A DNA stretch of 64,000 nucleotides from Blasia pusilla (taxonomy: Eukaryota): contig CM114271.1 in assembly GCA_050084515.1 (NCBI GenBank), forward strand, positions 14,446,001 through 14,510,000, read 5' to 3'. Shown one piece after another: positions 19,819-64,000 of the stretch. The number at the start of each line of letters is the position of its first letter. Position 1 is the first letter of the stretch. The position numbers and the translations under genes were made by a program. The notes beneath the pieces are model-generated. The model had not been told where the DNA came from, made no database searches, and was given only the letters and a program-made list of their open reading frames with translations.

Positions 19819-19820
<2 letters not shown>

Positions 19821-19856: not shown

Positions 19857-19860
<4 letters not shown>

Positions 19861-22215: not shown

Positions 22216-22399
22216 ACGCCATATTCCATCAATCATTCTCCTTTAGAAATTTTCTATAACTCGTGCATAAGTTAAGACAAGTTTGCACCAAGTGAGGTCT
22301 TGGTTAGTACCAACAATATTTCTAGATGCGGCATATGACCTCACATGGAGCAAAATTGTCATAGCTTATGCATGAGTTATAGAAAAATTCTAATGTATT

Positions 22400-23340: not shown

Positions 23341-25960
23341 CTTTCTTGAGGACGTGAAAGTCCTCGAGAAAGTTAGCACTCCATGTGAGTACGTTGCAAG
23401 GGGTTTTTTCATTTTAAAAAGAGGTGAATTATAATTAACTAATTAGTTGCTAAAGGGCTTGAAGAAAACTTTTTAAGGTCTTATTATAATGTAGGGTCCA
23501 AATAATTGGTTGACCAATAAAAATAATAATAAAATCTACTATAGGGAACTCGACATCCCATGTTGCAACGTATCATTTTCTAATTGGTCATGATAAAATA
23601 AATATAAATATATAGGAATAAATACAAAATCATCATTAAGTATGTAATAGCATCATCCATAAACAATCCATTTTCTTTACTACCATCCAAGTAGGGTAGT
23701 ATATGTATACTTCAATTTAGAAGACTTATGAGTATCCAACTTCTCTCATACTTATCAAAAAATTATGAATCTTTGTCATGCATGAAAATTTGAGGAGTTG
23801 GCTAAACCATTTTTATGGGAAAATATTGTTCTAGAGTGAAGCTAACAATAAAAATGGGGAAATACCATGTTTAAATGATCACTCAAATTTTGAGTGACTT
23901 TCAAAAAATATAAACCGTTCACTATATTTAAATACAATTAAGAGTACTTTCGTACAACTTTCAAATCCATCCAAAGGTGCAACGTGGTGTTACAAGTACA
24001 TTCATGAAAGAAAATGGGCAAAGTGATTGATGTTCCATGAGAGTTGAAGCTCCAAAATCTTCCAAAATTTTCTAATACATGTATGGGGTGGTACTTAACA
24101 TGTATGAATTATTTTAGATCCATTGGACATCCCATAAATGAATAATAAATGGAAAATGGTTTTAATTTGATGTTTTTGTCTCCACCTCTCAAATTCCAAA
24201 ATAAGATATGAACCAATAAACTACATGATACTAAAAATATGGAAACATCCTCAAGGTTTTAACATAATCCAACGGTTAAATCTAAGGTGGTGCTAGAACT
24301 AAGAAAAATAAAACAAGAACCTAATGCCAATTCTCAAGGTATATTTTTTATACTTGAAGTTGGAAGTCTTGTGAGTATTCAACTTCGCTCGTATTCATTA
24401 AAAAAATATGAAATCCATCAAATCATGCACAGAGGCATGAAGAGTTGGCTGAGTTTTTTATGAGAAACTATTGACCCAAAGTGAAGCTAAAAATAAATAC
24501 TGTAAAATTCCAAGTTTAATCATAACTCATATTTTGAGGGACTTTCACAAGATCTAATCCGTTCATTAAATTTAAATACAAGAAAGAGTACTCTCCTATA
24601 ACTTTCAAATCCATCCAATGGTGGAATGTGATGTTATAAGTACATCAAGACAAGAAAACTTTGTTGTGTGATTGCCAAGAATTGTCAATTTATAATCCAC
24701 ATCGTGAAGTTGATTATGAAAAAACCCTTATGGAGAATGAGCATGCTAGTTATCGTGATGGTGTAAGGGAAAACATTTGAAATAATTTTTTTCCATTAGT
24801 TCACTAGTCTATGCAGTCAAATTTATGGAATGAACCAAATCCTCCCTTGGTTCTCCTAAGTGATAAAAATAATATAGATTATGGTCTAGCTAATATTGAT
24901 GTAGTTGGACATGAGTTGAGACATATTATGAACGAGGTTATCCATGAGAGTGTTGGAGAAGAAAATGTTAGAAAGGTTGATCCTACTATTATATATGAGG
25001 GGAAAACAATATATAAATCAACATTGGTGAGCCAACTTATTGGAAATCCTATGATTTCAAAAGATAGACTTTTAAGAGTCATAAGTTCATTGACATTTAG
25101 TATTCCTAAACTTCGCTTACAATGTTCAAAAGCACCATGAGCATCATGTATATTAGATATTGGTTATACACGTGTGTGTTTTTTTTAAAAGGAAGCTTTG
25201 TAATCTTCTATCTCGAGGGTTGCAGCATCTAGACAGAGGGAAAAAAAACTAAAGGAGTCCCTATAAGTAGCATGGAGAGAGGATATACTTACAAAGCTTG
25301 GATAGGTAAAGTTAAAAAGTTGAGGAGAAAAAAAGGAAAGAGTTAACACACTAGGTTACACAACAATAAGATATGAAATATCATTACATGACAGAGGCAT
25401 GTTTGACCGTATGGAGGATCTACAACGGAAGATGATAAGATAGAGTGTATGTTTAATTGATTCAATCTTGTGAATCAAAACTCAATTCTTTTCATTTATG
25501 ATAACAATGATGTATAATGGATAGAAATAGATATGGTAATTGCTTATGTTATAATGGAATACAAGCAAGGAGTGAAAGATGTTGGGATACTAGATCCTCA
25601 TGATAGAAAAGTTGCAAATGCTTTCTTACAAGACAAGAGGAAATCTTGACTTTTTAAGGTATTTATCAAAGAAAGTATTTACATTAGAGAAGTTGTAAAT
25701 TTCATTGAAATGTATTTGTGTTATGTCTTAAGTTTATTTTGTGTACTCTTTTTCATTTATATCCAATTGGCTCTTTGTACTATGCTTCTTTTATAGAAAT
25801 TATATCTACATGTAAAAGGGGCCGTAAGGTTTTGTGAAGATTTTATAATAGTAAAAGGGTTATTAAAAATCCATAATTCAAAAAATTATAGTAGTGATGT
25901 ATTAATTACAAATTGAAAAAAAAGGGCTTGATTAATTAAAAAATAATAATAGCGAAGCGT
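23341..25960 (+). mobile_element. Unclassified AT-rich putative DNA-transposon relic with internal ~310-bp duplication and coding remnant
   Basis: Hairpin at 23341-23372; imperfect direct repeat about 23707-24020 vs 24350-24655; coding-like fragment 24811-25140 (DPTIIYEGKTIYKSTLVSQLIGNPMISKDRLLRV). Confidence 0.35.
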
Positions 25961-40215: not shown

Positions 40216-43200
40216 GGTCACATCTTATTTTGACGTAGGTAGACTTCTATCGCGTCGACGGTATAGAGAGTCCCCGGGCTATTCGGGTGTAACTTCGTCC
40301 CGAGATGTCGAACGAGGTTGGTGATAGGTCTGTTGTGTTGGGAACGTCATTTATGGAAATTTCCCTATTTTGGTTTTAGTCCGTTAGATGATACGTTGAC
40401 CGAGTCAACGGTCACCCTGTAACCTATGCACACACGCTACTGTTGGTAGGGATATTTTTGGGGGAAGAGCCCTTTGGCTCTTCCCAAGGGTATCATAGTA
40501 ATGAACGCCTCTCTTGCATAGACGTGTGTGGGTGTGTAGCAGTAGTTAGGGTGCTAGCGTCCGGATTCCCTCATAGCTATGATGTGGATGTAGTTCGATA
40601 TGCCGATGAAGATCAATGATCGGGGAGATCCGGGGTTTAGAGTAAAGCTAGCCGGTAAAATTCAAGAATTACCGGCTGATTTTAAAAGTGCCTATGAAAA
40701 ACCCGTTGGATTCGAGCATGTCCTTTGTATTTGTGTCTGAAAACCGGTTCAAAAATGGGGATTATTGTTTCCGACTAGACATTCTTGGCAATGTACCGGG
40801 TCCCACGAGAAAACTCCCTGAACCCTGATGTAGATTCATGAGTGGAGTTTTAGGCCGGGTGAGCCGGTTTTACTACTCTTGATTTTACATGAGAAAGATG
40901 TCAGGGGGCTGGTGGGAATTCTTTGTTTGCAAGTAGGCAAGCAAGTTGCCTCGGTGGGGAGCCCCATGAGACGTGTGTGTGGCGTTTTGGGCGTTGTTTT
41001 CTGTTTGGAAGATTGTGCGTGGGAGCGCTGCTCATTTTTCTCAGATTTTCGCGGGTAACGGATTAGAGTAGAGCAGTAGGAGAGTGGCGGACAGGGTGCT
41101 CGAGTGTAGCATTGATGGGAGAACGGCGCATGTTAGGAAGGAGAGGGTTTGCCTTGCAGCCGCTGGGGTTGTTAAGTGAAGACTAGCTAGGTCGTGGCCG
41201 GTCTAGGGTTAGGTCACGGGCAAGGGACCGGAGGACCACGGAGTCAACAGCCAAGGGTTGTGAGGTAGCAGACAGGAAAACAGGACAAGAGAAGAGCTGC
41301 GTGGCAATACGGGGGGGCAGCGTATAGGGTCGCGTGCCCACATACTGATGGCCAAGAGCCGGGCAGCAAGGCAAAGTATGCCGGATCCGGGAAGCTGCAT
41401 AGGGCAGCACACCCGAGCGGGGTTTGAAGGAGTTGAGGATGCACAAGGGAATCCGCAAGCTAGGGCGCCGGGCTGCGGGAGTAGTAGCCGGAAGCTGAGA
41501 GTGTGAAGCTGGGGTTCGGGGACAAGAAGGTGCAGAGTACAGGGCTAGAGTTGGGAAGCAGAGGTTTAGCAAGACTGCATAGGTATGTGTGCCAAGGACT
41601 AAGGTGGTAAGGCATATAGAGGCAGGTAATGTAGGTACCGAGGTACCTCGTAGTAAGAGTGCGGGTGAAGGAAGAGAAATTATGGCTCCATAGGGATGGG
41701 CGCTGGAAGATGTGAGCGTGGAAAAAGGGGATAGGTACAACCAAGTGGGAAGAAAAGAAGAGAGAGCTGCAGAGGCTCAAGGGAGAGTGTTTAGGGACCC
41801 GGATGAGCTCCTAGGTTCACAGATGGAGGAGGGAGCCATTATGGCTCCAAAATTGGTGGAAGGAGGGAGGGCCATTGAGGCCAGAAATTCGGGTGAAGGT
41901 GTGGAAGGAGCAAGGAGCTCCAAGTGCGCAGGAGGGTCCAAGGGAGTCATTATGACTCCAAAGGTGGAGGAAGTTGCATGGGCACATGTGTTTGCATAGG
42001 GCCGCTTGCCTAAACGGGTAGAGACAAGCAGATGGAGGAGAGCGTTGGACGTAGTAGAGGTGACTTCACGCAGTTGGAAGGCCGTCATGGTTGTAGGACC
42101 GGCAAGGTTGAGCAGTGAATGTGGTATGTTGGATTGGAGATGGTTGGTGATTGGAGAGTTACATGGTGGGGCCGTCCAGCGTGGTACTATAGCTACGTTG
42201 TTGAGTGGGCATGCGTTGGGATTTTCGGAGTCGAATGAGAGATTCAAGATGGATAGACTTGAGGCTTTGAGCCAATTGATGGTGAGAGTGTGAGCTACAT
42301 CGATAGTTCATGACTGAGTACTGGAGGTGGAGACGCAAGCGCTGATGTCGACGGGTTATCTACATCCGTTGACGAGAGGTTTGACGTGTTGTTCGAGGAG
42401 AGTGTCGTGTTGCGGAGGTTTCCGCACCACATGGAGGTGTGCGTCTTGATGGATTGTTAGTAGGTTGGAGGGCGTGATTAGGTTACTCATTCGAATCCCT
42501 TTTCTTGCACTTGTCGTGTGTCATTGAGAGTGTTGGGTATCGGGTAGTTGTTGGTGGTAGATGGGTGTAGCGATGGCGACGAGTGTAGACTCCTTTCATG
42601 TGTAGCATCTTGGTGGATATACGGCGGTTTCCGAGTAGGGGTCGCGTGTATGACCCAAGAGTGTCTGTAGTTTAGGTGAGTTAGTGGGAGGCTCATGGTG
42701 AGCCCAAGTGTTGAGTGTGCGTGAGGTCGGGTGTATGATCACGGATTGACATTAGCATAGGTGAGCTAGTGAGGAGTGTGGGAGACTCTTGGTGAGTCGG
42801 AGTGCTTGAGCGGGTGAGACACGGTTGTCATCATGGCGTTCTTCTAGGGTTTGGAAGAACGGGGTAGTACGAGCACTGGTAGTGGAGTGACACGGAGTGA
42901 TGTGAGGTATCGAGGGGTTTTGAGTGAGGAACCACCCCGACTCCCATCAGTGGCTGGATTGTCATCACTAGACAGTGGGTTTGGTGACGGTGATACGTGG
43001 AGAGAAAGGGACGGTGATACGTGGAGAGAGATGGACGACATGGGCCATCAGGGCATGCGTCTTTTCACGGGTGCGGTAGGCATCATAGATTTAGATGACT
43101 TCATCCAGGAGTTTGACATGTGGTGTGACTTCCAGGAGATACATACCCCTATGCGATTCAACTCTTTTATGGCATGGAAGGGGTTATTCCAGCACTTGGA

Positions 43201-46200
43201 GGGTCCACCGATGGATGACTACATGGAGTTTTGATCTCTATATTTTATAGGGATTGATGTCTGGAGGGTGTATTGGGCTCCAAGGTATATGTTCACTAGT
43301 GGTCGCAAGGCGTATGATGGGATAGTGAGGGCAGAGAGACCTTCACCATCACCCCGGGGACTAGATGGAGAGGATAGCAGTGAGAGTTGTGAGGTGGCAG
43401 AGACCTCTTTTGGTAGAGGACCACCGAGTTTCACTCCTATAGTGGAGTTCTTCCGACAATTGGGGAGAAGCTTCCAGGGCATGCCAACTGACAAGCTGAA
43501 GAGTCTACAAGATTTTCAACGGAGATCAAATGAGAGTCTGAAGGAGGCATTCACGCACATGCGACGGTTGATTGTTGCCACATATGGGGTGACTGAGGCA
43601 TCGTCAATATAGTATTGGTACGTGGTGCTAGATGAGGAGCTACGGAGGAGAGTTTGGGATGCGATGTTGCTTCATACGGCAAAGCCCACATTGAAGGTGG
43701 TCTTCGAGTTGTTTGAGCGAGTAGAGCTCAACATGAGTGAGGAGCAAGTAGTGACCACGAGATTTTTGCAGGATTTGACGAGTCGACGAGTAGGAGTAGA
43801 CCCACAGGTGTCCTAGCATGCACCAATACCATGAGGGCGGGCCGATGGGCCCAAAGAGCATAGCGAGTATTGTGAGCCAATGAGGCAACGGCTCGTACTG
43901 ACATATGTTTCCCAACAAGGATGAGGGTTGGCTTATTGGATGTGTGGTGGGTCACATAGGGAGAGGGACTGCCCACAATATGGGAGAGGGCCACGGGCAG
44001 CTCCGATTTCTCAAGAGCCACAAAGGATGGCCCCACCACAATTGCAGTGTGATCATTGTCACCGATAAAGTCACACTAGGAATAGGTGTTATGATCTTCG
44101 CCATGAGGTACGTCCAGAGGTAGGCAGAGGACTTGGGGGCGAGAGAGTTGGTGGCGATCAAATAGTGGGTGATCGTGGTGGTAGAGTGCCATCACCTCTC
44201 ACAAGAGATGGAGGACGTGCACTTGATATAGCGCTCCTTACGCGCATCGATCAGTTGGAGTAGAGGATGGTTGCCATGATGATGATGCAGCTACAGGCAG
44301 GCCCAAAGCTGAGAGTAGCTAGCGTGGCGCCAACCTCCACATCTTACCACGATGCTGTAGGGATGGGATTTATGTGTAGCGCGGCTCAAGTTGAGGCAAC
44401 TTTGGTGGTGACTTGGGGTGTTGCAAGAGTAACCAAGCCATCAAGGGATGGGGTTGAGATTGACCCACGAGAGGGGACCGATGGGCGTTGTTACAGGCAT
44501 TGCATACATCGTTGATGGTGCCTTGACAACCGGTAATACCCATGGGTGGGACAGATGTGTCGACATCACGAGGAGTTAGAAAGACGACTCCTATGCCGAC
44601 TCGAGTGGAGCTAGTGTTGACCACACTGTTGGATGTGGCCACTAGGGTGAGCCACGCTCCGTTATTTTCCGTTGTGGAGTTGGCGACGTTGGGAGTTGGA
44701 CCAACGGAGGTGTTCTGACTGGCGCCACATTGTGTGAGCGTGGAGAGGTGACAGCCTCTCGTTCAGAGGTAGTTGAGGAGGTGGTGGACTTGCCCTCAGA
44801 GCAAGAGCTCTGGACATCCCCCACTCAGTCATGGCATGCGACGACGGCAAAGTTGGTAGATATGCCAACTCGGCTAGCGATAGAGCGAGCCATGATCACA
44901 CCAGGTGTGGTGTTGTTGAATAACCGAGAAAAAGTGTTTTGCTTGGTTAGTCCCACAGGTACGGTGTACCACTTGCAGCGCGTCCTACTTGATTTGAGAG
45001 CGCAACCCTTGATACTAAGGAAGGTGGCGCGTGTTTGGCGTTGGGTTTACGGAAAGGCAACATTAAGCATTGTCCCTTTCAGATACAGACGTCTATTGGG
45101 GGCGTATCACCCATGTAGTACATGACTCGAGAGGAGTTGGTGGTTATACTCCAGCCAGAGCATGAGTCGGATAGTGCAATGGTGCGCACTCGGGCGATTA
45201 CGACACCTGCAGAGTCATATGATGTTTTGGCTAGGGAGTACGGTGTTGTATCCCTCTGGTTTTATTCTGGATTTTTGGGAGGAGAAAGTTTCTTATCAGC
45301 TAGGGTGGCGATCAAGTGATGGATGGATGAGCCATCTACCGGTGTTGTTTGCAAGGAGTAGTGATGGTCAACCACGTGAGGATACGGTGACCACATTGGC
45401 AACATTCATAGGTGGTGTTTGCTGATCAGAAGGGTTTGGGGAGAGGAGCACACATGCGAAGGGCATTCCCGTAGCGGATAGTCGTGCGGAAAGACATGCC
45501 AGGGTGGGTGTCTCTTCCCATGGTGCGAAGCTTTGTTATTGTTGTTGGGGAGCATTGAGATGCGTGGAGTGCAGACGAGCACTCCACGCATGCATGGAGC
45601 CGCGCCTATGTTTGGAGTAGGGTATGAGAGTGTTAGATCTCTTCCGACGGATCAACATGGCATGTTGCTATAGTGTGAAAATGTTGCGGGAACAACGGCA
45701 CCGATGGCGCTAGATGTGCATAGGATAGGAAATCTTGTCAGATACATATGTGTGTGCTATCTAGAGTTAGGGGGACCCAACTGCAAGTTAGGATGGTGGT
45801 TGTGGGATCCCATTTTATATGCGTGAGTGTATTTCGTTTATGTATGGATCTACCCGTATGTTGGAGAAGATCGATGTTGTGCGGTGTGTAGATGTGACCA
45901 GCGATGTGTGTTGTGTAGTGATGTGTATGCGCATGACAAATGTCACATCTTATTTTGACGTAGGTAGAGTTCTATCGTGTCAACGGCATAGAGAGTCAAC
46001 GGGTTGTTCGGGTGTAACTTCGTCCCGAGATGTCGGATGAGGTTGGCGACAGGTCTCTTGTGTCGGAAACGTCATTTATGGTGATTTCCCTATTTTGGTT
46101 TTAGTCCATCAAGTGACCTATTGACCAATTCAATGGTCATTCGGTAACGTGTGCATGCAGGTTACCGTTGGTAGGGCTATTTTTGGGGGAAGAGCCTTTT

Positions 46201-49380: not shown

Positions 49381-52300
49381 TGTCACGTCTTTTACGATAG
49401 ATCGGTAAGATCTAGTAGAGCGCCTTTGCGGATAGTGGAGGATAGGCTTAGGAGGTCAAGAATGTCTTGCTGAGGCCTCGAGGAAACTTGAGAGAGCAAG
49501 TTTCTCGGGGCCTTCGTTTCGGCTCATTTGGAGCCATATTGAGGAACTTACTATTTTAGGCAAGTACCATTTTGCGCACTGCCAAATTTTGTATAGGAGA
49601 ATGAGACGTTGGGCTTTACGACAATCCCCTTCAATTTTTACAAGAAATTTCCAATTAAAAATATTTTTTAACATTGTCGTAGATCGTGAAGCTGTGCACG
49701 CAGTGCAACAGACGGTGCGCGATTTGAAGTTGCAAGCAAAAAGAAATGGTCAATCTTGCAAAATTGCCATTGCTAGGAAATTTTTAGGGTTAAATTATTC
49801 AAACCCTAAACCAACCGCCGCGCCGGCAGCGGCCGTCGCCATCAACGGTACGATGTCGATCGTCAATTGTCACCGTCAACGATCAACCGTCACCGTCAAC
49901 GGTCCACCGTCCATCCTCGGCCGTCGCCGTCGCCTAGCGTTGCTTAGAGCCGCGTTGGGCCGTTGTCCACCCTTGGTTGCCATTGCCGCCATTATGGAGT
50001 GGAGGGTCTTCCACGACGACCATTGATTCTCTGACTTTTGCCGCCACCACGTACTTTGTTTTGGCCGCCACCGTCATCGCAGTTTCATCATCAACAAGTG
50101 ATGGGAGGTGACCTCGGGTTATGGTGTTTCAGTTTTCATTTCATGCTGCTATGTTGTGATTGGTAGCTGCTCGACGACGATCGAGTATCGTGTCGTGACG
50201 CCCGTAGCTGCAACGCACCGCCGATTTCCGTGCCGTGCCGCTCGTGACTGCACCATCTAGTTGGGTTTGTCCCAAGTTCAACCCTGTGGTTGAGTTCTTT
50301 GCTGAGTTAAGGGAGAGCTACCAAGGGGTACGGACGGAGAAGTTGTGGAGCATCCACGACTTCCAGAGGCTCCTGGTTGAGAGTTTGCGTGAGGCTTACA
50401 CTCGCTTGCACCGGTTGATCAACGTCACTCAGGGGCTGACAGAGGCTCAGGCTATCCAGTCATGGTACACCATGCTGGATCGGACCCTGTGGACATGGGT
50501 GCGGGAAGGGGTGCTTCTTATGAACACCTCCCCTACATTGAGGGGATGTTTTTAGGACCGCCGAGAATATTGAGTGCAAAACATGGCGGAGGAGAGCGTA
50601 CACCATGGGTTCTAGGCGAGAGTAGTCACGATTGTCTACACCACCCGTGCTGCAACGTGGACTCCAAGATAGGTTGATTGTGGCACCACAAGCTCAGGGA
50701 GGATCCTAGGAGGCCGTGCCGTAGAGATCTACGCCTTCATATGAGGCTCAGCAACTGCCACCTACAATTACTTGTTGGTCATGTGGTGGAGTCCATCATG
50801 AGCGTGATTGCACTCGTCAGGGTCATGGACGTGTGCCTCAGCATGGAGGAGATGGTGTTGCACTAGGAGGTTATTAGTATGACTATTGTCAAAGGTATGG
50901 TCACACATGCGCTAGGTGTTTACACCTTGAGTCTCATCAAAGTTCCCAGAGAGTTGGTGATGTTGTTGGTGTGCAGATACGGAGGGCGATGGGAGAAGCG
51001 AGTGCAACGACTCTTATTGGTGATGCTCAGGAGGAGCATGTATTGAGCACACTGTTGGGAATGGCCACAATTGTGTAGCGCGCTCCTTTAGCATGGCGGA
51101 GATGCCCGCTAGACCGGCGATAGAGTGTGACATGGCTTCTCCTTGTGGTTTGTTGTTGGATAATTGGTCTTCCAGTTGGTGAGTCTTGGAGGTAGAGCTT
51201 TTAGTCTGAAGCGCATCTTGTTGGATTCAGGAGCGCAACCCCTCATGTTGGGGAAAGCCGCATTCAGAGGATTGGGCTTGACGAGAGTCGATGTGGAGCG
51301 TTGTCCATTCTGGATACAGACATCCTTGCGGGGAGCAAGTACCACATAGTATATCACCCGACAAGAGGTCTTGGTGAGGATTCGCTCGGGACATCCTATA
51401 GATGAGTGAGTTGTGCGAGCCAAGGCGATAGTGACTGATGCAGAGTCCTACGACGTCTTGGTTGGTAGAGTAGTGTTATACCCGATGGGGTTTTCCTTGG
51501 ATTACATGGAGGAGTCAGTGTCCTACAGACCAAGATGGCAGTCACGTGATGGGCGCCTTAGTTCATTACCCGTTCGATTCATAGGTGCAGTGATCAAGCG
51601 ACGGCTAGGAGAGATGGCAACCTTAGCAACATTTAGCAACACCATCACTTGGCCTAGTGATTTCATTAAGGTACATGTCCATACACAGGATATGCCGGTT
51701 TTTGACATTTCTATGGAGAGGAGTGTCATGGTCGCCGCATGAGTCCGTGGAGGAGAGGTGCCGCTTTGGGGCTCGACTGAGGAGCTTTGACGCTTAGCCA
51801 ATGAGCATGTGCAGACCACGTGGAGCAAGACGTTTGCACCAGAGCAAGACGGATCTGAGGAACCCAAGGTAGTCAAGAGTGCTATAATGACGCCCTTGGA
51901 CACCACATACATTGTGTGGCGTATCCCAGAGGAGGGTATTCGGGTATTGGATCTCTTTGGAGAGATCAGCACTGGGTCACCTGGTGTTTTGCAGGCACGA
52001 GTACACTTGCAGCAGTACTTGTATGTGGAGATTGATGATTTTGCAAGGCACGCTTCACTTCATCATGTGGGGAAGTTACGCCTCTGCTTTCCCAACTTGT
52101 TGTCTGCATCCGCCATCCAGGGTTACCAGAGTTCCCTACCGAGGGACACTTCATTGCTTGGGGTGCAGGACTTGGAGCGGGTAGGGACCATAGACTTGGT
52201 CATTTCTGGTTGGCCGTATCACGGCCAATCGAGTGCGGATGAGGGAACGGGTTAGCTGACACTCGGTCCAAGTTGTTTTGGGAGATGATGCAGATCTTGC

Positions 52301-53919
52301 GACATTTACAAGAGCATCAGCCTCGTTCTCTAACATACACTTTGGAGAATGTGCAAATTTTGGGCAATTCGAGGTCCCGCGTAAAGACAAGTGCTCATCA
52401 GGTACGCACATGGATCGGCCCGACAATGTTGTTAGATGCGGCGAGTGTAGGTTCTAGAGCACACCACCCGCGTCTTTGGTGGACCAACTTGGTACCACAT
52501 AAGGTATTATGGAGGGCCTATGTGGGAGTGGAGCTCCCCTCCGATTTGTTGGCGGATTCAATATTGGATCCCGACTGTCCATCACAGGCAGTGAGGCACG
52601 ATGATCAACCGCCATTGATTGTGGTCAACAAGATAGGCATGCCACGTGCAGCCTTTCCCATATTGGTAATTTTCCCGATTCCTATGCATTCAAGGAGGCC
52701 GGAGTTGGCTTGGTTTGGGATGACCGGATACATAGGTTGGTGGAGCCCAACGCCGATGAGCGAGAGGGAGCGATGGGATTCCCCATAGGAGTGACGGCAG
52801 TACCGTCACTATCAGAGGCATCACGACGTCATGTCTTGGGTTAGGCAATGGACATGAACTACTTGACATGGATTTTCAACTTACGAGTCGATGTACAACA
52901 TCGTTTGAGGATGCGACATATCACAACAGTTGTGTTGGTGAGCCCCATGCCTACTGAGACGGTTGAGGCAGTGGCTAGGGGTGAGACTTGAAGAGATTGA
53001 GAGAGACACCCTTGGACTTCTTAGGATATTTTGCAGGTATACCAAGAGATGGTAGCCACAACATCGAGCGTGGTTTTATGTATTACACATAGAGATCCGA
53101 TTTTGTAGTTGGCTGCAGGGGAGCAGTTGAGTTTTGTTGTCCGAGACGGGGTTGCACCATAGCAACCATCACAACCTACGTCGAAGAGTCCTACCATAGT
53201 CACGATGGAGACTTAGGACCCCAATATGGGCCCTAAGTTGACAGGAAGAAAGCGGCGCCGGACACACCAGTTCCTTAAGAGTTATAGGAGTTGTTTTGCA
53301 TTTAGCATGCATGATTTGGGTATGTTGAAGGGTCCAGGGATCCGCATTGAGTTGTCGAGCAACACGTCGATCTTCCGGCGATCCTACAGGTACAGTGACA
53401 TGGAGAGGGCTTTGATTTAGAGTAGGAGCTAGGACTTGGTGGGAGCAGGACTGGTGGAGATGTCGCATGGGGAGTATGCATGTGCCACTATCATGTATGC
53501 CAAGAAGGATGTGCATGGCAACTCGACGGATAGGCGGATGTGTGGAAATTACCGACCTATCAATTGGCAAACAAAGTCTGATAGGTATGCCATGCCCATC
53601 CTTGAGGAGATCTTTGATTCGATTGGGCATGCAAAGATCTTCAGTTCATTGGATTTGCCAGTCAGATACCATCAATTGCCTATCAGATTGGAGGACAAGC
53701 AGAAGAGGGGCGGTTCTTACCATTCGGGTTAAAGAACACCCCGGTTGAGTTTCACACGGTCATGGATAGGATCATAGCAAGTCAGGATTTAGCTAGATAT
53801 TATATTGATGACATCGTAGTCTTTAGCGTCACGGTTGAGGAGCATGAGCGACATCTAGAGGAGGTGTTTCCACGATTGCAGTTATATGGGCTGAAGCTAC
53901 ATCCAGGCAAGTGCAAATT
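49381..53919 (+). mobile_element. Family-X element copy 1 (truncated): partial A, leader, gag, protease, DNMT3-like domain, RT
   Basis: Starts TGTCACGTCTTTT. Contains ILLDSGAQPL (protease), IRVLDLFGEIS/GWPYHGQS/TLENV (DNMT) and RMCGNYRPIN...YIDDIVVFS (RT). Collinear with 54602-61380. Confidence 0.9.
51938..52880 (+). pseudogene. DNMT3-like cytosine-C5 methyltransferase domain, copy 1 (catalytic PC mutated to PY)
   Basis: Motifs I (IRVLDLFGEISTG), IV (DLVISGWPYHGQS), VI (YTLENVQ), VIII (AHHPRLWWTNL). Confidence 0.9.
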
Positions 53920-54565
53920 TGTAGTGCGCATACATATTGCTAAACAACATACATCGCTATCACCAAACACACACACAAACGCGCACGATCCCATGCTAAC
54001 TCATGGCATCCAAACAACGAGACAAGAGGTACCAAAATATCTCTTTGTAAAATAGGATCCAATCTCTCTCACAACACCATAGTTCTCATATGTGTGCAGT
54101 CACACATGTCTCTGTCAATGTCAAACCAAACCCACTCTCTGAATGAGAGGCTAAGGTTACACACATTAGCTAACCAAGACCATAGCTCTGTCGCCTCATG
54201 CCAAGACGTTCAACAAAGAGAGAATGAGATCTCAAGCTCTCTCTCCTTGAGGTATATCCCTCTCCTCTCCCAAGCTCTCTCCGTGGTAACCTATTCTCCC
54301 AAGTCACCTCCTTGGCTCTTGACCTGATGTAGGAGGTCAAGGGCCACTTACCAAAAATAGAAAGTTGATCATATACTCAAAATGGTACTTACCTAAAATA
54401 GAAAGTTCCTCAATATGGCTCCAAATGAGCCGAAACGAAGGGGAAACCTGCTCTCTCAGGTTTCTCAAGGCCTCAACAAGTCATCCTCAACCTACTGAGC
54501 CTGTCCTCCACTACCCATGAAGGTGTTCTACTAGATCTCACCCATCTATCCGAAAAGACGTGACG
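53920..54565 (-). mobile_element. Family-X solo A-B unit
   Basis: Minus strand: GTCACGTCTTTTCGGATAG ... TATTTTACA (A end, 54046) joined to AAGAGATATTTTGG ... GCGCACTACA (B end, 53920). Confidence 0.85.
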
Positions 54566-57500
54566 TATGACCAAAGTACTCAATCTGTTCGTAGAAGAAT
54601 TTGTCATGTCTTTTAGGATAGCTCGGTGAGATCTAGTAGAGTGACTTCTTGAGTAGTGGAGGACAGGCTCAATAGGTTGAGGACGACTTTGTTGGGGAAA
54701 ATCAGCGCGGAAGAGCTGCCGAATTTTACGTAGGAGAAAGAGACATTGGGCTTTACGACAGTCCCTGTAAATTTTTACTGGAATGTCCGATTCTAAATAT
54801 TTTTTAATAGTGTCGTAGATCGTAAAACTGTGCAGGCTGTGCAACAAACAAATTTGGAGTTGCGAGCAAAAACTTATGGTCAATCTTGCAAAATTGCCAT
54901 TGCTAGGCCATTTTTCGGGTTAAATTGTTCAAACCCTAAACCAGCCGCCACGCCGGCGGCGGCCGTCACTATCATAGTCCCCATCAACGGTCGGCCATCG
55001 AGGATCAACCGTCACCATTGATGGTCAACCATCACTGTCAATGATCGGCCATCACCATCAACGGTCAACGGTCCACCGTCCGTTGTCCACCTTTTGGTTG
55101 CCATTACCGCCGCTACGGAATGGAGGGTCTTCCACGACGTTCGTTGATTCTCTGACTTGCATCTCCACCACCTACTTTGTTTTGGCCGCCACCGTCATCG
55201 TAGTTTCGTCATCAACCAGTGATGGCAGATGACCAATGTCTCTTTCTCCTACACAAAATTTGGCAGCGTTTCCGCGCTGATTTCTCCCAACGAAAATGAC
55301 ATCACTCATCATCAACCACTAAAGTAAAAACGGATGGGGATTGTCGTAAAGCCCAGGTTGGGGACCGTGTTCCCCGTTCAGCGGCTCATGGGAGTGCTCA
55401 CCGGAGCAAGGGCTGCTTTCATCATTCCTTGCATTTGCCGATTTTTCGTGTGGAAGAGTGGCGCACGGAAGCGCTGCCCAATTTTTGACAGGGATTGAGT
55501 ATGGGGTTGGGTTGCCCCATGCTAGTGCTCACGGGAGCACCATGTAGCTTGCTGATTTGTATTTTTACAGATTTTACATTTTTTTGGGAGAAATCAGCGC
55601 GGAAACGCTGCCAAATTTTGTGTAGGAGAAAGAGACATTGGGCTTTACGACAATCCTCGTCCGTTTTTACTGAAATGTTTGATTCTAAATATTTTTTGAT
55701 ACTAGGGTAGATCGTAAAGCTGTGCACGTTGTGCAACAAACAGTGCGCAATTTGGAGTTGCGAGAAAAAAGTTATGGTCAATCTTGTAAAGCTGCCATTG
55801 CTAGGCGATTTTTAGGGTTAAATTGTGCAAACCCTAAATCAGCCGCCACACCGGCGGCGGCCGTCGCCATCATAGTCACCGTCAACGGTCAACAGTCAAC
55901 CATCACCGTTGACGGTCACTTATCACCATCATCGGTCGGCCATCACCATCAGCGGTCAACCGTCACTGTCAACGGTCCACCGTCCATTGTCCACCCTTTG
56001 GGTGCCATTGCCGCCATTACGGAGTGGAGGGTCTTCCACGACGTTCGTTGATTCCTTGACTTGCGTCGCCACCACGTACTTTGTTTTGGCTGCCACCGTC
56101 ATCACAGTTTCTTCATCAACCAGTGATGGCAGGTGACCTTCGGTTATGGTGTTTGAGTTTTGATTTCATGCTGCTATGTTGTGATTGGTAGCCGCTCGAC
56201 GACGATCCAGTATCGTGCCATGATACTGGATCGTCGTGTCAATGAGATGATAGCCTGGTCGATTTGCCGCACCACGCCGCGTGTTACCGCACGTTACACG
56301 TCTCGGGGAGAGAGAGTGTAGATTGAGTGCCGCATGTTTGGGATGAGTGATTGAGGGATTCCTCACCAGGTTCAGAGTGATCGGGTGAGAGGGGCACGAG
56401 GGTCATCACGGAGTCCGTTCGGGACTTTGAGAGGCGAGGTGGTGAACCCGAGAGTAGCTCTAGAGGTTTTACGCGGAGTGGCGCGAGGTTCCGAGGGTCT
56501 CCACGTGAGGGACCACCTCGACCTCTTTCTGTGTCATCGTCAGACAAGGGGGAGGGTGTAGAGGAGTTTGTGAGCACATCGCCACACATTGTGAGTGGTC
56601 CTATCAGTTGGGCGTACGAGATGGACGACCGGGGTAGAGGACCGCGTAGGTTTTCAAGTGCAGTAGGCACGATTGAGTTGCACGATTTTATAGCAGAGTT
56701 TAGGAGTTGGTGCAACTCCCAGCGGGCCAGGAACTCTAGAGAGTTCAACCCGTTCTGACATGGAAGCGGTATGTTCCAAAGCATTTAATGGGGCGCCCAT
56801 GGACGATTACCATGAGTTCTCTCAGAGATATGCATGTGAGATCAAGGCGTGGAGGCTCTACTATGACCCACATTATGTGTCATGGACGGAGCCGTTCCCA
56901 GATGAGGAGGAGGAGTCAGGAGAGGCTACTTCCTCTTCCACTAGTGACGTTTTAGGAGGAGTCACTCGCACGGGAGCAGTTGCACCATCTAGTCGGGTTC
57001 GTCCCAGGTTCAACCCTGTGGTTGAGTTCTTTGCTGTGTTGAGGGCGAGCTACCAAGGGGTACGGACGGAGAAGTTGCGGAGCATCCAGGAGTTCCAGAG
57101 GCGCTCGGGTGAGAGTTTGCGTGAGGCTTACACTCGCTTGCGCCGGTTGATCAACGTCACTCAGGGGATGACAGAGGCTCAGGCTATCCGGTCATGGTAC
57201 GCGATGCTGGGCCGGACCCTACGGACACAGGTGTAGGAGGGGGTGCTTCTTATGAACACCTCCCCTACGTTGAGAGATGTTTTTAGGACCACCGAGAACA
57301 TTGAGCGCAACATGGTGGAGGAGAGCGTAGCCACCATGGGTTCTGGGCGAGAGCAGTCGTGCTTGTCTATAGCAACGTGGACTCCGAGATAGGTCGACTG
57401 TGGCACCACGAGCTCAGGGAGGGTATCAGGAGGCCGTGCCACAAAGACCTATGCCTTCATATGTGGCTGAGCAGTAGTCGCCTATTATTACTTGTTGGTC

Positions 57501-59323
57501 ATGTGGTGGAGTCCATCATCAACACGATTGTACTCGTCAGGGTCATGGACGTGTGCCTCAGCATGGAGGAGGAGATGGTGCTGCACCAGGAGGTTATCAG
57601 CGTGACTATTGTCAGAGGTATGGTCATACACGCGCCAGGTGTTTCAGTTTACATCCTGAGTTACGTCCGGACCGAGGGCGAGGAGGGCACCGGCGAATAG
57701 CGGTCGGGGTGGGCCTAGAGATCGTGCACCAGGTGGTCAGTTGGGGGCGAGGCTGGGAGTTGCCCGACAGGGTGGTGGAGCTGCCCATGGAGGAGGTAGA
57801 GTACCACCACCTAGACGCGCCGAGGGAGACGCCAAACGTGAGGCTGGGATGGCTGCTCAGATACAGCAGCTAGAGGAGCAGATTGCCGCTATGGCATTGA
57901 GGTTACCAATGCCGGATCCATCGCATCGACATCATATGGAGTAGCCAGAGATCTGGAGGATCCTGGATGGATGTGCGGGGTTGCCCAGATGGAGGCCACC
58001 GCAGTTGTGACGCGTGGAGGAGCCGCAGAGTTGGATCCACAGTGAGGGGAAGCCAGAAGACAGATTAGGCTTCCTCACTCTTTCACGTTGTTTGAAGCGA
58101 TGAGGATCCCATCGATGGGTCCTCATCAAAGTTCCTGGAGAGTTGGCGATATTGTTGGTGTGCAGGCACAGAGGGCGATGGGAGAAGCGAGTGCGACGAC
58201 TCCTATTGTTGATGCTCAGGAGGGGCATGTGTCGAGCACGTTGTTGGGGGCGGCCACCGTTGTGTGCCGCACTCCCTTATTTTCTGCTTCCGATGTTATG
58301 ACGTTGGGGGGTACGCCCGCCGAGGCTTTTTGGCTGGCTGCTTCACTATGTGAGCACGGAGTTCGAGTTCCTGCATCACGTTCAGAGGTGATTGCAGAGG
58401 AGGTGATGGACCTGCCCTTGCAGCGGATGCTCGGACCGTCCACGTCAGATTCATGGCAGGCTGCGGCTGCTTGGATGGCGGAGATGCCCGCTAGACCCGC
58501 GATAGAGCGTGCCATGGCTTCTCCCGATGTTGTGTTGCTGGATAACCAAGGAGAGGTCTTCCAGTTGGTGAGTCCTGGAGGTAGAGCTTTTAGTCCGCAG
58601 CGCATCTTGTTGGATTCAAGAGCACAACCCTTGATGTTGGGGAAAGCGTCATTCAGAGGATTGGGCTTGACGAGAGCAGATGTGGAGCGTTGTCCATTCC
58701 GGATACAGACATCCTTGGGTGGAGCGAGTACCACACAGTATATCACCCAACATGAGGTCGTGGTGAGGATTCGCCCGGGACATCCTACAGATGAGTCCGT
58801 GGTGCGCGCCAAGGCGATGGTGACTAATGCAGAGTCCTACGACGTCTTGGTTGGTGGAGGAGTGTTATACCTGATGGGGTTTTCCCTGGATTACTGGGAG
58901 GAGTCAACGTCCTACAGACCAGGATGGCAATCAGGTGATGGGCGCCTTAGCTCATTACCCGTTTGATTCATAGGTGCAGTGATCGAGCAAAGGCCAGGAG
59001 AGATGGCGACCTTAGCAGCATTTAGCAGTGCCATCACTTGGCCTAGTGATTTGATTGAGGGACATGTCCATGCAGAGGATACTCCCGTTCCTGACATTTC
59101 TATGGAGAGGAGTGTTATGGTAGCTGCATCATTCCGTGGAGGAGAGGTGCCGTTGTGGGGCTCGACTGAGAAGCTTCAACGATTGGCAGATGAGCACGTG
59201 CAGACCGCGTGCAGCCAGGCGTTGCACAGGCGTGGCGGGTGCGAGGAACCCGAGGTAGCAGGGAGTGCTACGATGACACCCTTGGATACCACACCCATTG
59301 TGTTGTGTACCGCGGAGGAGGGT

Positions 59324-60260
59324 ATTCGAGTGTTAGATCTCTTTGGAGGGATTAGCACCGGGTTAGCTGCTGTTTTGCAGGCAGGAGTGCGAGTACAGCA
59401 GTACCTCTATGTGGAGAGTGATGATGTTGCGAGGCGCGTCTCACTACGACATGTGGCGCAATTACGCCTATGTTTTCCCGACTTATCATTTGCGTCCACA
59501 CTATAGGGGTACCAGAGTTCCCTACCGAGGGATATTTTGTTGTTGGGGGCGCAGGACTTAGAGCGGGTAGGGACCATTGATTTGGTCATTGCCGGTTGGC
59601 CATGTCACGGCCAATCGAGTGCTGGACGAGGCAGCGGGTTGGCTGACACTCGGTCCATGTTGTTTTGGGAGATGTTGAGGGTCTTACGGCAATTGCAGGA
59701 GCACCAGTCTCGTTCTCCAACCTACATTCTGGAGAATGTGCCGATCTTAGGAGACTCCAGGTCACGGGTGGTGACGAGTGCTCATCAAGTGCGTGCCTGG
59801 ATTGGCCCAACAATGTTCTTGGATGCGGCAGTGTAGGTTCTAGAGCCCATCGCCCGCGTCTATGGTGGACCAACTTGGTGCCCCATGCGGTGTTATGGAG
59901 GGCGTATGCGAGAGTGGAGCGCCCCTCCCATTTGTTAGTGGATTCCATTCTGGATCCAGGTCGTCGATCACAAGCAGTGAGGCACGATGATCGACCACCG
60001 CTGATTGTGGTCAACAGGATAGGTAGGCCGCGGGCAGCCTTGCCCACGTTTGTGAGATTTCCTGCTTCCTATGCATACAAGGAGGCCAATCCTGGCTTGG
60101 TTTGGGATGACCAGGTTCAGCGGTTGGTGGAGCCCAACGCCGACGAGAGAGAGCAAACGATGGGATTTCCCACAGGAGTGACGGCAGTACCATCAGTGTC
60201 AGAGGCATCATGATGCCATATCTTGGGTCAGGTGATGGACCTGAACTGCTTAACATGGAT
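59324..60260 (+). pseudogene. DNMT3-like cytosine-C5 methyltransferase domain inside Pol, copy 2
   Basis: I IRVLDLFGGISTG; II YLYVESD; IV DLVIAGWPCHGQS; VI YILENVP; VIII AHRPRLWWTNL; IX EREQTMGFPTGVT; X ILGQVMD. Broken by stops at 59504 and 60211 and a 1-bp deletion near 59829. Confidence 0.93.
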
Positions 60261-61474
60261 CCTCAGCTTGGGAGTGGTTGAGCAGCGTCGTATGAGATCG
60301 CGACAGATCACAACGGTTGCGTTGGTGAGCCCCATGCCTATCGAGACGGTGGAGGCAGTGGCTGGGGGCGAGACCGGAAGGGATCTACGCACCAGGGGAG
60401 ATCGGGAGAGACACCCTTGGACTTCTTGGGATGTTTTGCAGGTACGCAAGGAGATGATAGCCACAACATCGAGCATGGTTTCGGGCACTGCACGTGGAGA
60501 AGATCACAATTTGTAGTTGGCTGCAGGAGAGCGGCCGAGTGTTGTTGTTTGAGACGGGGTTGCACCATAGCAACCACCGATACCCGCGCCGGAGAGTCCT
60601 ACCGTAGTCACGATGGAGACTTGGGAGCCAGATATGGGCCCTAAGTTGACAAGAGGAGAGCGGCGCCGAATACATCAGTTCCTCAGGAGTTATAGGAGTT
60701 GCTTTGCGTTTAGCATGGAGGATTTGGGTACGCTGAAGGGACCGGGGATCCGCATTGAGTTGTCGAGTGATATGCCGATCTTCCGACGACCCCTCTGGTG
60801 TCTGATGATATGGAGAGGGCTCTGATTCAGAGTAGGAGCCAGGACTTGGTCGGAGCACGACTAGTAGAGATGTCGCATGGGGAGTATGCATCTGCCACTG
60901 TCATGCTCGCCAAGAAGGATGTGCATGGCAACTGGACGGATAGGCGGATGTGTGGGGATTACCACCCTATCAATCGGCAGACAAAGTCCAATAGGTATGC
61001 CATGCCCACCCCTGAGGAGATCTTTGATGCAATTGGTCACGCAAAGGTCATCAGTTCATTGGATTTGCGAGCCGGATACCATCAGCTTCCTATCAGATTG
61101 GAGGATAGGTAGGAGACGGCATTTTGGGGCATCGATCCTCACGGGAAGGATTGTTTGTACCAGTGGCGGTTCTTACCATTTGGGTTAAAGAACGCCTCGG
61201 GTGAGTTTCAGAGGGTCATGGATAGGATCTTGGCTGGTCAGGATTTTGCTAGGTGTTACATTGATGACATTGTAGTCTTTAGCGCCACGGTTGAGGAGCA
61301 TGACCGACATCTAGAGGAGGTGTTTCGACGATTGCAATTACATGGGCTGAAGCTACATCCAGGCAAGTGCAAGTTCTTCTACAACCAGATTGAGATTTGG
61401 GTCATACGATATACTCAAGGGGCCTTGGTGTTCAGCAAACGAAGGTAGAGGCTATCTCACGCATTCCACACCCT

Positions 61475-62855
61475 TGTCGTGCGCATACATGTCGCTACAC
61501 AACATATATCGCTAGTCACATCTACACCACACAACACCGATCTTCCCCACACACGGGTCGATCCACACATGTACAAAAATCAACTCATACATATACATGG
61601 AGATCATACAACCGCCCCCCTAGCTGGCAGTTGGATCCCCCCAACTCCAAATAGAAAATATCATATCTCTCTGACACGACCTACTACCCTATACACATCT
61701 TGGACATATCCATCGTCCCGTGTGAACCACATCAAGAGGGGGGTTTAGACATGACATATGCCATCCTCGAGAACAACCATCACATACCTACATGGTGGCT
61801 GCACCCCTCGCACATCCGTACAACATACACCTCAAGCCTACACTTACCACTGCCAAGCTCGGATCCACCGTCCCATCAACGTTCGGAAGATGACATGGCG
61901 CACAATTTCCGAAATGATCCTTCCAAACCATACCATCCCGTCCCTCCAACATGAGGACTCTCGTCGGTAAAACCTCGCGCACACGTAGGATCGTGCGCCC
62001 TGCAGTGACATCTAGCACACGTAGGATCGTGCCGCTTGCTGTAAATACACGTAATCTCCACGATGAAACCTCCTAATCCCGGACGGGTGCGTTTAGGGTC
62101 CGCGCCCATCCGCGTCCGTCAGCGCCCGTCGCCGCCCGTCTGTCGCCCGTTGCCGCCCGTCCTTCGCCCCTCGCCCGTCGCCGCCGCGCCCTAACCCTAG
62201 ACCGGCCGCGACCTAGCTAGCCATCTTTACTTAACAGCCCCCCGACGGCTGCAAGACCCAAATCTTCTTTTCTTCTCTCTCTCAACACCCTCACTCGCGT
62301 ACACCCGACGCCTACTCCGTACTACACTCTGCCGTTGTGCCCAATTCCTGTGCACAAAATCTGAGAAAAACGGACAGCACCAGCCCCCTGCCATCTTTCT
62401 CATGTAAAAATAAAGAGAAGTAAAAACGGCACACCCCGCCTAAAACTCCACTCCTCAATCTACATCGGCATATCGAGCCTCGTCCACCCTGTGCTATCAA
62501 GGAATCCAGACGCTAGCACCCTAGTCCTAGCTTACACACATACAAGGGAGGTGCTCCAACGGCCCAACATGAGAAAGATGGCTTAGGAAAGCCATCTTCC
62601 TCTCTTATATAGGGTTGGGAAGAGCCAAAAGGCTCTTCCCCTAGAAATAGCCCTCCCCTTGGTAGCCTGCGCGCACAGGTTACTAGGGGCGGGTGACCTG
62701 GTCAACAAGTCACCCGGCTGTAAAAGATCTCAACATGAAAGTTATCAAAAACGAATGGACCTATCCTCAACCTCATCCGACACCATGGGACAAAGCTACA
62801 CTCAAGATAGTCCGCTGGCTCCTACGCCCTATCCACGATAGATCTCGGCCTATCA
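61475..62855 (-). mobile_element. Family-Y-related short element nested in pol: A (62855-62403), PBS-like site, short leader, integrase tail plus PHD, PPT-like tract, B (61610-61475)
   Basis: TGATAGG...CACGACA termini. Host pol is continuous across it (ISRIPHP | SDVSRV). Confidence 0.88.
62390..62611 (-). promoter_or_regulatory. Element promoter (TATATAA at 62611-62605) and putative self-priming pair
   Basis: 16-bp perfect inverted repeat, 62567-62582 vs 62390-62405. One arm starts 29 nt after the TATA box; the other lies at the TTTTACA end of A. Confidence 0.7.
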
Positions 62856-64000
62856 CCTGCTCAGATGTGAGCCGGGTTCCCGCATTCATGGGATTGGCGA
62901 ACTTCTATCGGCGATACGTCAAGGGATTCAATTTGATTGCGAAGCCACTAACCTTGGTGACCAAGGTGGATCACGAGTGGCACCAGGGGGATGAGCAAGA
63001 GCGAGCATTTCAGTTGCTCAAGGAGAGGTTGACGTCTGCGCCCATCTTGAGGAGACCGATCAGGGGGCGTCCTTTTCAATTGCACACAGATTGAAGCATA
63101 TTGGGACTTGGAGCGGTGCTCACCCAGCATGATGATGAGGATAGAGAGTTCATGGTGGCTTGCGCTAGCCGCTCGAACAACGCTGCAGAGGCAAAGTACA
63201 ACTCGTATGAGGGTGAGTGCTTGGCTGCGGTGTGGGCTGTCACGCATTTCACGTGTTCCTTATTCGGCGACCCCTTTACCATCATCACTGATCATCAACC
63301 ACCGAAGTGGTTGATGGAGTCCGACAAGCTTACAGGGAAGCTTGCGAGATGAGCTCTGTTGTTGCAGGAGTATGATTTTCAGGTGGTACATAGACCTGGG
63401 ATGCTCAACCAAGATGCAGATGGGTTGAGTCGTAACCCATGCCCAAGTCAGCGAGATGCGACTGGAGCTTGATGGCATGGAGAGAGTGATGAGGAGTTGG
63501 TGCTAGGATGGCACGCGTCAGCCTATTTAGGCATGTTGGCTATGGAGAGCCATAGTGTGGAGACTTCGATGGCGAGGTCTAATGGAGAGTCCTTGGATCC
63601 CGAGGCCAGTGAGGAGACGACAGATGGCCGAGATATTCATGATGATGGAGTAGTCTTGGAGTACCTTCGTACTGGCAGCGATGCGAGCACTCTGGGTGCT
63701 AGAGAGCGAGATCGGATCCTACAACGGGCCAGACGGTTACGTTGGGAGGGGACACATGTTTTGAGGGTTTGGGAGGATGGCAAAGTACGCGTAGTGCCGC
63801 ATCCTTTGTAGAGAGCACGATTAGTGTAGCATGCCCACGAGGAGTTGGGTCACTTTGGGGTGAAGCGGACGTACAGCTTGCTCCAGATTCAGTATTGGTG
63901 GCGAGGCATGCAGACAGACGTTGAGCATTTTGTTGCCTAATGCATGGTGTGTGATCGGGTTCGAGCCTCATTCAATGCTCCGACTCCACACTTGCATCCA

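Follow-up and report, generated by a model that had tools for sequence, protein, structure and literature searches.

What does a cytosine methyltransferase do inside the Pol polyprotein of a liverwort retrotransposon? The question is raised by a 64,000-nucleotide stretch of Blasia pusilla DNA (assembly GCA_050084515.1, contig CM114271.1, forward-strand positions 14,446,001 to 14,510,000), which is called the window here and is numbered from its first letter. The window holds several decayed copies of a Ty3/gypsy element. In one of these, copy 2 (~56.2 kb to the window end at 64.0 kb), positions 59324-60260 run from the start of motif I to the end of motif X of a C5 cytosine DNA methyltransferase (DNMT). 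Copies 1 and 2 are, with high probability, dead Gypsy-DNMT3 elements of the streptophyte kind, in whose active members the Pol-borne methylase most likely deposits 5-methylcytosine de novo.

A methyltransferase domain between protease and reverse transcriptase

The motifs of the copy 2 domain were named by alignment to DNMT3A and to intact relatives. All lie on the plus strand: motif I (IRVLDLFGGISTG) at 59324-59362, motif IV (DLVIAGWPCHGQS) at 59579-59617, motif VI (YILENVP) at 59723-59743, motif VIII (GSRAHRPRLWWTN) at 59836-59874, motif IX (NADEREQTMGFPTG) at 60136-60177 and motif X (ILGQVMDLNCLTW) at 60220-60258. The predicted DNMT3-type C5 cytosine methyltransferase domain was placed at 59324..60258 (+) from these motif coordinates, a match to Pfam family PF00145, an alignment with the intact relative P0001 and a family profile. 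PF00145 matched the open reading frame (ORF) piece 59507-59836 with E = 3.2e-11 and 43.7 bits (cut-off 22), and it scores 34-51 bits on relatives. No Pfam family was found at E <= 0.01 on the N-terminal (58967-59506) or the C-terminal (59647-60213) piece of the copy 2 domain. The profile, built from 20 relatives, aligned with the copy 2 read-through (an X placed at each break) over profile positions 50-401 of 502 with 538 bits, a sequence match that can be taken as far beyond chance. The frame pieces of copy 2 are 54% and 62% identical to P0001.

Two stops (59504 and 60211) and a frame change at ~59831-59833 interrupt the copy 2 domain. The first frame extends over 58046-59836, with stops at 58964 and 59504; the second runs from 59833 onward with the stop at 60211, and the start of the reverse transcriptase (RT, 60622-60792) shares it. 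Copy 1, which has 82.0% nucleotide identity to copy 2 over 2905 columns, reads open across the place equivalent to the frame change (ORF 52243-52788). A first-pass annotation, made from the letters of the window, had described motifs in canonical order at 59324-60260 and one frame that is split by point stops and then, after a break missing from copy 1, continues in the frame of RT. It had also proposed a PF00145 search and an estimate of the ratio of nonsynonymous to synonymous divergence (dN/dS) as checks. The layout was recovered as described, and the Pfam match lies above its cut-off. These results confirm the copy 2 domain as a predicted C5 methyltransferase with motifs I to X in canonical order, sited between protease and RT.

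The same arrangement is encoded intact elsewhere. P0001, a 726-aa protein with protease (PR) and DNMT parts, was found by a word-index search with the copy 1 ORF. Used as the query, its DNMT part retrieved 73 proteins at E <= 0.001 among 8000 scored candidates, including proteins of Marchantia polymorpha (many), Calypogeia fissa, three Sphagnum species and Closterium. A search of 1.84 billion cluster representatives with the profile of 20 DNMT-only relatives gave 12993 proteins at E <= 1e-3, 2387 at <= 1e-10 and 507 at <= 1e-30. The best 150 of these matches are all family members, and many are polyproteins of 1000-3456 aa. A protein of Klebsormidium nitens (P0141) is also among the profile matches. 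The Marchantia model P0005 aligns to copy 2 as Gag, PR and DNMT, and the Marchantia model P0008 is collinear with copy 2 through PR, DNMT, RT, a gap at an insert in the window copy, and RNase H. P0085 carries matches to zf-CCHC, Asp protease, DNA_methylase, RVT_1, RNase H and integrase in one ORF of 2188 aa, and P0341 is another single-ORF full-length relative.

Metagenome contigs supplied further members. A search with P0001 confirmed 0 of 55 candidate stretches; a search with the family alignment confirmed 300 of 599, and 80 loci were kept. Most of these loci are decayed, with a stop-free DNMT core in 2 of 44 close copies and near-full-length ORFs only in locus L046 (976-8226 of a 9.3-kb contig), a near-intact PR-DNMT-RT-type element. 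One L046 ORF encodes Gag, PR and DNMT and a second encodes RT, RNase H, integrase and a PHD finger, separated by an in-frame stop at 5083-5085. The stop falls exactly between DNMT and RT and may have arisen by mutation or act as a read-through signal. A search for direct repeats on the L046 contig found none. Pfam detects a PHD finger 3' of integrase in some family members.

The Ty3/gypsy order PR-RT-RNase H-integrase is represented in the window by RVT_1, RT_RNaseH and the start of integrase, and it is complete in P0085 and L046. The predicted proteins show that active members carry one Gag-Pol polyprotein in the order Gag-PR-DNMT-RT-RNase H-integrase, with the PHD finger behind integrase in some. 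The ancestral Pol order PR-DNMT-RT-RNase H-integrase proposed by the first-pass annotation is thereby upheld by the three collinear window copies, by the collinearity of P0008 and by the single ORF of P0085.

The window is rich in transposon debris, and one of its many nested fragments interrupts the RT of copy 2, a setting in which the domain might be no family trait but a host DNMT3 exon captured once, or an insertion that is nested or chimeric. Against this, three window copies and the single-ORF polyproteins from other genomes all have the domain at the same place and in the same frame context, hundreds of diverged representatives exist (507 at the strictest threshold above), and dN/dS between copies 1 and 2 is 0.22. 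One-off capture was ruled out on these grounds and is vanishingly improbable. A second alternative is a cluster of host-domesticated genes, that is, a transposon-derived liverwort DNMT gene, and it would agree with the annotation of several Marchantia models as ordinary genes, one of them as a DNA (cytosine-5-)-methyltransferase. In the window copies, though, the domain is surrounded by Gag, PR, RT, RNase H and integrase and is riddled with stops, and 74631 contig pieces from a DNA run matched the stretch, which indicates a very abundant repeat family. Domestication was rejected for these reasons and is highly improbable.

DNMT3 likeness, selection and transcription

P0001 was compared with all PDB sequences to place the methyltransferase among the known groups, and 37 distinct chains matched at E <= 0.01. 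DNMT3A ranked first (3.6e-11), followed by DNMT3C (3.8e-10), DNMT3B (6.4e-8), DRM (4onj, 1.2e-6) and then HaeIII; no DNMT1, CMT or DNMT2 was among the 37 chains. The DRM match is limited to the motif I-IV part (query 346-470), and DRM is a distant relative with the same catalytic fold. The motifs of DRM are circularly permuted (VI-X before I-V), whereas the element has the canonical order I-IV-VI-VIII-IX-X. A structure model of the relative P0004, computed with a 20-sequence alignment, has a mean predicted local distance difference test (pLDDT) score of 69.1 and a predicted template modeling (pTM) score of 0.68, and its core is good. The Foldseek matches listed (ranks 1-49) are all DNMT3A/B/C with E about 1e-17; template modeling scores on the target are 0.75-0.81 for catalytic-domain-only chains and 0.39-0.53 for longer full-length chains. 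The PDB ranking and the modeled fold support a DNMT3-like assignment for the element domain, and the choice of DNMT3 over DRM in the first-pass annotation stands.

Host DNMT3 enzymes of animals and non-flowering plants (DNMT3A/3B, and PpDNMT3b in the accessible text of Yaari et al. 2019, PMC6453930) have the same motif order and provide the best sequence and fold matches. The element domain differs from them in its ~20-22% identity in structural alignments, in being embedded in a polyprotein and in motif IV, which reads PCQ where the DNMT3A alignment has PCN. Pfam found no PWWP or ADD domain of host DNMT3 on P0001, P0005, P0008, P0085 or L046, and PF00145 was the sole Pfam family found on the DNMT-bearing part of P0001. 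Some DNMT3s have no companion domains according to the accessible text of PMC12344493, so the missing PWWP and ADD leave membership of the catalytic clade possible.

Purifying selection was measured between the window copies and among metagenome copies. Between copies 1 and 2 the DNMT core has dN 0.133, dS 0.611 and dN/dS 0.22 (bootstrap 0.16-0.31), the protease core dN 0.089, dS 0.12 and dN/dS 0.73, and RT dN 0.128, dS 0.31 and dN/dS 0.42; all three ratios are overstated because both copies are now dead. Nucleotide identity between the copies (51093-53919 versus 58475-61375) is likewise uneven, at ~87-90% in the protease region and ~78-83% in DNMT. The uneven dS suggests that copies 1 and 2 are mosaics of different lineages and that element lineages recombined before these copies were inserted.

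Of the 946 pairs formed by the 44 close metagenome copies, 858 could be used, and medians were taken per dS range. The median dN/dS was 0.82 at dS below 0.1 (33 pairs), 0.60 at 0.1-0.2 (454 pairs), 0.54 at 0.2-0.4 (320 pairs), 0.55 at 0.4-0.8 (10 pairs) and 0.19 above 0.8 (41 pairs). A ratio that falls as dS rises is expected where the enzyme is maintained in replicating lineages and copies decay once inserted. The two dN/dS estimates, 0.22 for the DNMT core of the window copies and 0.19 for the 41 deepest metagenome pairs, show that the DNMT domain has been under purifying selection in replicating lineages.

Three raw-read host RNA runs were aligned to the window at a likeness of at least 90%, and reads cover 30 of the 30 bins of 58046-61448. 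In run X22, pairs whose first mate maps to the minus strand have depths of 17-47 over DNMT, 15-70 over PR and 44-78 over RT, and the opposite read orientation is ~5- to 100-fold or more lower in most bins. A first mate on the minus strand corresponds to sense RNA in most stranded libraries, and the strand asymmetry argues against DNA carry-over. The majority of the reads are only 90-95% alike (1118 of 1271, 897 of 987 and 1209 of 1386 in the three runs), which indicates that they come from related copies transcribed in sense. One base more than in the window is present at the frame change in 82 of 109 RNA reads. At 59608, the codon after the catalytic Cys is changed from H to Q in 90 of 94 RNA reads, giving PCQ.

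Across the family, the S-adenosylmethionine-binding motif I is retained along with the nucleophile PCQ, ENV and the motif VIII RxR, and an alignment of 20 relatives shows no variation, or conservation of 90% or more, in the W-P-C-Q, E-N-V and R-x-R columns of the catalytic site. This conservation makes de novo deposition of 5-methylcytosine on DNA the most likely activity of the enzyme. The proposed mechanism starts with translation of the methylase inside Pol, through which it would enter the virus-like particle together with RT and integrase. In the particle, the protease may excise the methylase, or the methylase may stay attached as an N-terminal extension of RT. In either form it would place de novo 5-methylcytosine on the element's own cDNA or on the new insertion.

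Several findings weigh against this reading. Both window copies are broken, and the catalytic Cys of motif IV is replaced in copy 1 (GWPYHGQS). PF00145 covers only the center of the domain in the window, and only or mainly the center in most relatives. The DNMT3 assignment draws on PDB ranking and fold, the trees described below having been built without host DNMT3, DRM, CMT or MET1. The extra base at the frame change accounts for only 1701.5 of 7858.8 summed contig depth (10 contigs of the DNA run), about a fifth, so frame-shifted copies may be common. The RNA reads are not assignable to intact copies, and stop-free transcripts are not inferable from 40 of 502 differences. The structure model is only moderate, and its motif VIII-IX stretch has pLDDT <50 (residues 317-343). 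No activity has been shown to date for any Gypsy-DNMT3, and the domain of the K. nitens element gave no methylation in yeast, a result that its authors regarded as inconclusive in the accessible text of PMC5890265.

The yeast result and the poorly modeled motif VIII-IX stretch, which is the target recognition site in DNMT3A and aligns weakly to DNMT3A (1.1 bits for the second stretch), would also fit a conserved domain that does not methylate DNA. Such a domain might act on RNA (the genomic RNA or the tRNA primer, in the manner of DNMT2-type enzymes), serve as a module that binds DNA or chromatin or be a DNMT3L-like regulatory partner. DNMT3L is not known to have the catalytic motifs, unlike the family, in which PCQ, ENV and RxR are invariant or at least 90% conserved. 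By sequence and by fold, the closest matches are DNMT3-group enzymes that act on DNA, and DNMT2 is missing from the 37 PDB matches. A domain that leaves DNA unmethylated is accordingly rated unlikely, and de novo DNA methylation by the Pol methylase of active members is the preferred reading.

Published Gypsy-DNMT3 elements and two domain orders

Is the element new? An element of this kind is described in the accessible text of de Mendoza et al. 2018 (PMC5890265) as KnitGypsy-Dnmt3 of Klebsormidium nitens, an LTR (long terminal repeat) Gypsy element with a non-rearranged Dnmt3 domain in its Pol ORF and Ka/Ks < 0.2. According to the same text, copies in K. nitens are few, the acquisition is specific to that lineage and the repeat layout is DIRS-like (A-coding-B-A-B). 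Its authors propose that retrotransposon DNMTs may methylate retrotranscribed DNA, which is also the hypothesis of the first-pass annotation, in which an enzyme packaged with RT and integrase could pre-methylate cDNA or new insertions. The gains that the authors discuss are that the element evades recognition as foreign or is protected from deamination. Later work, in its accessible text, uses the name streptophyte Gypsy-DNMT3 or speaks of DNMT3 embedded in streptophyte LTR elements (bioRxiv 10.64898/2026.05.21.726589, PMC12344493).

The window element resembles KnitGypsy-Dnmt3 in its DNMT3-type domain in a Gypsy Pol ORF, in the catalytic residues that are kept and in purifying selection (omega 0.22 here). 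The K. nitens protein GAQ93235.1 (P0141), which may be one of the copies analyzed there, contains PR (591-729) followed by DNMT (825-1145). It aligns in collinear fashion with P0001 over PR and DNMT (31% identity, E 5e-59) and with copies 1 and 2 (29-39% identity per segment to copy 2), and it shares with the window copies both the PR-then-DNMT order and the side of the DNMT tree. The differences are a liverwort host instead of a charophyte alga, a different subclade, ~31% identity, and a liverwort family that appears very abundant and is transcribed in place of an element with few copies. On domain order and sequence, the window element is of the published Gypsy-DNMT3 kind, with the architecture of the K. 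nitens protein, now in a liverwort. The novelty implied by the first-pass annotation is therefore not supported.

SymbioDIRS-Dnmt3 of Symbiodinium (accessible text of PMC5890265) also has a DNMT3-type domain in a retrotransposon Pol polyprotein and also occurs in two domain orders. Its de novo CG methylation was shown in yeast, and its acquisition was considered independent. It is a DIRS element with a tyrosine recombinase in a dinoflagellate host, whereas the element described here is a Gypsy element with a DDE integrase. No text naming a liverwort or moss Gypsy-DNMT3 was found in the open-access literature, although the supplementary trees of PMC5890265 and PMC12344493 may include bryophytes. 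None is named in the accessible text of PMC11982613, PMC12344493, PMC6453930, PMC5784723, bioRxiv 10.64898/2026.05.21.726589 or 10.1101/2021.02.12.428880.

Domain order was scored with phmmer probes on 219 proteins, and two orders, both confirmed by Pfam, were found. Type A has the order (Gag-)PR-DNMT-RT-RNase H-integrase. Type B, a large sister lineage, has the order (PR-)RT-RNase H-DNMT-integrase-PHD; examples are P0053, P0059, P0060, P0128 and P0193. A FastTree phylogeny was built from 160 DNMT domains, comprising 35 of type A (including the two window read-throughs with X at breaks), 78 of type B and 47 unclassifiable. It contains a single A/B change, on a branch with support 99. An IQ-TREE quick search with 47 rows (27 of the 35 type A, 20 of the 78 type B and 0 of the 47 unclassified domains, with near-duplicates and one long branch left out) gave the same single split with a Shimodaira-Hasegawa-like approximate likelihood ratio test (SH-aLRT) value of 99. 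Copies 1 and 2 pair in both trees (100). Their clade (support 99-100 in both trees) contains P0001, P0006 and Calypogeia and Marchantia proteins, plus P0004 in the FastTree phylogeny, and the K. nitens and Closterium proteins fall in other type A subclades. Both trees are unrooted, and type A may thus be paraphyletic to type B. As a separate observation, P0021, labeled as a DNA cytosine methyltransferase of a Candidatus Obscuribacterales metagenome-assembled genome, lies inside the retrotransposon DNMT clade by eukaryote-like sequences and is probably plant DNA binned into a bacterial genome.

The members from Closterium, Sphagnum, Marchantia and Calypogeia argue for a far wider family than an acquisition in the K. 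nitens lineage. A broader proposal is put forward tentatively, as a possibility rated below even chances: Gypsy-DNMT3 may be an old streptophyte-wide lineage (Klebsormidium, Closterium, Sphagnum, liverworts) that in a land plant is highly abundant and still transcribed and that methylates its own cDNA or new insertions, with a sister lineage in which a single rearrangement relocated the methylase between RNase H and integrase. If this is true, bryophyte methylomes may receive a contribution from, or be manipulated by, a de novo DNMT3 encoded by a transposon. Elements of this kind are already published, and the window itself adds a decayed liverwort member and no new mechanism. What goes beyond the published work is the wide distribution among streptophytes, the finding that the family is abundant and transcribed in sense in a liverwort, and the sister architecture, in which the methylase lies beside integrase. 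Liverworts are tractable for asking what a transposon gains from a methylase, with Marchantia genetics and annotated gene models of the family at hand. DNMT3-like gene models of bryophytes should be checked for a transposon origin before they are counted as host methylation genes.

Element copies and other features of the window

The remaining parts of copy 2 were mapped on both sides of the methyltransferase. A repeat unit just upstream, at 55580..56223 (+), was found by within-window blastn and may represent all or part of a 5' LTR. It resembles two other units, one preceding copy 1 at 49579-50198 and one at 54688-55234 (80% and 83% identity by blastn). The unit forms a tandem pair before copy 2 (54688-55234 and 55580-56138) and is single before copy 1, and a 39-nt palindrome is present at its end (56199-56237). 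The tandem units and the palindrome may be related to the DIRS-like repeat layout of the K. nitens element. No LTR pair or primer binding site was definable in the window, which contains copy 1 only in truncated form and ends before the 3' end of copy 2.

The Gag region of copy 2 (56351..57896, +) is decayed into several frames with stops and was located by tblastn of the Marchantia models P0005 and P0071, both Gag-PR-DNMT. The protease ORF (58046..58966, +, 306 aa) has its active-site region, LLDSRAQ, at 58607-58627; the corresponding residues are LLDSGAQ in copy 1 and LLDTGAQ in P0001. No Pfam family matched the copy 2 protease ORF at E <= 0.01, and relatives match Asp_protease_2 weakly. RT (60622..61519, +) is identified by RVT_1 (E 6.4e-19 at 61113-61448) and by collinearity with P0008 residues 696-955, and it has an additional frame change near 60792-60810, plus stops.

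A foreign repeat of ~1.3 kb (61520..62860, no strand assigned) interrupts the RT/RNase H connection and appears as a gap in the collinear P0008 alignment. Its ends match opposite-strand repeats at 21590-22216 and 45712-46429, and it contains a PHD-finger-like piece at 61692-62083 (-) with 72% identity to residues 500-608 of Marchantia P0054. A repeat of ~620 bp occurs at three sites inside or beside elements, 21590-22216 (-), 45712-46429 (-) and 61474-62870 (+), and in copy 2 it is split by the further piece that bears the PHD-finger remnant. Beyond the insert, the RT connection and RNase H (62861..63766, +) match RT_RNaseH (E 7.8e-24 at 63095-63352) and P0008 residues 941-1190. The start of the integrase region (63554..64000, +), cut by the window end, was found by tblastn with the integrase parts of P0053, P0059 and P0060.

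Copy 1 (49975..54055, +) was delimited by nucleotide identity, tblastn and ORFs and consists of the upstream repeat, a Gag remnant, PR, DNMT and an RT truncated at ~54055. Its PR motif LLDSGAQ is at 51218-51238, and its DNMT extends from motif I at 51938 to motif X at 52871. It has two frame changes and several stops. Copies 1 and 2 are pseudogenes, dead and with no function now.

Copy 3 (18424..23344, +) is very decayed and AT-enriched (GC 0.39). It was recognized as Gag-PR-DNMT-RT-RNase H by tblastn with P0001, P0005 and P0008 at 30-60% identity with many stops; its DNMT pieces lie at 20908-21338, and PCQG is retained at 21198-21215. The CpG observed/expected ratio drops with increasing decay, from 0.75 (copy 2) through 0.67 (copy 1) to 0.40 (copy 3). 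Copy 1 has A/T where copy 2 has G/C at 195 transitions, compared with 96 in the reverse direction, and this excess fits C-to-T decay of methylated repeats. Copy 4 (43031..45413, +) is a Gag-PR fragment of a related element that is truncated before DNMT and was found by tblastn (43% identity to P0005 residues 1-481, 34% in PR). Smaller debris includes a motif VIII remnant of a further DNMT copy at 6048-6110 (+) and an RT fragment of a related Gypsy element at 7491-8359 (-).

Air metagenomes X8, X10, X11 and X14 contained 17-29% of the sampled words of the stretch, a match that does not bear on habitat. The only clear host genes seen in the window are two copies, ~23 kb apart, of a two-exon DUF604/Fringe-type glycosyltransferase gene with long open exons, at 9950-12386 (-) and 33068-35569 (-). 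Liverwort proteins are their best hits, and the identities point to a liverwort outside the genera compared as the source of the window: 70% with Marchantia, 68% and 67% with two species of Riccia, 60% with Calypogeia and ~50% with mosses.

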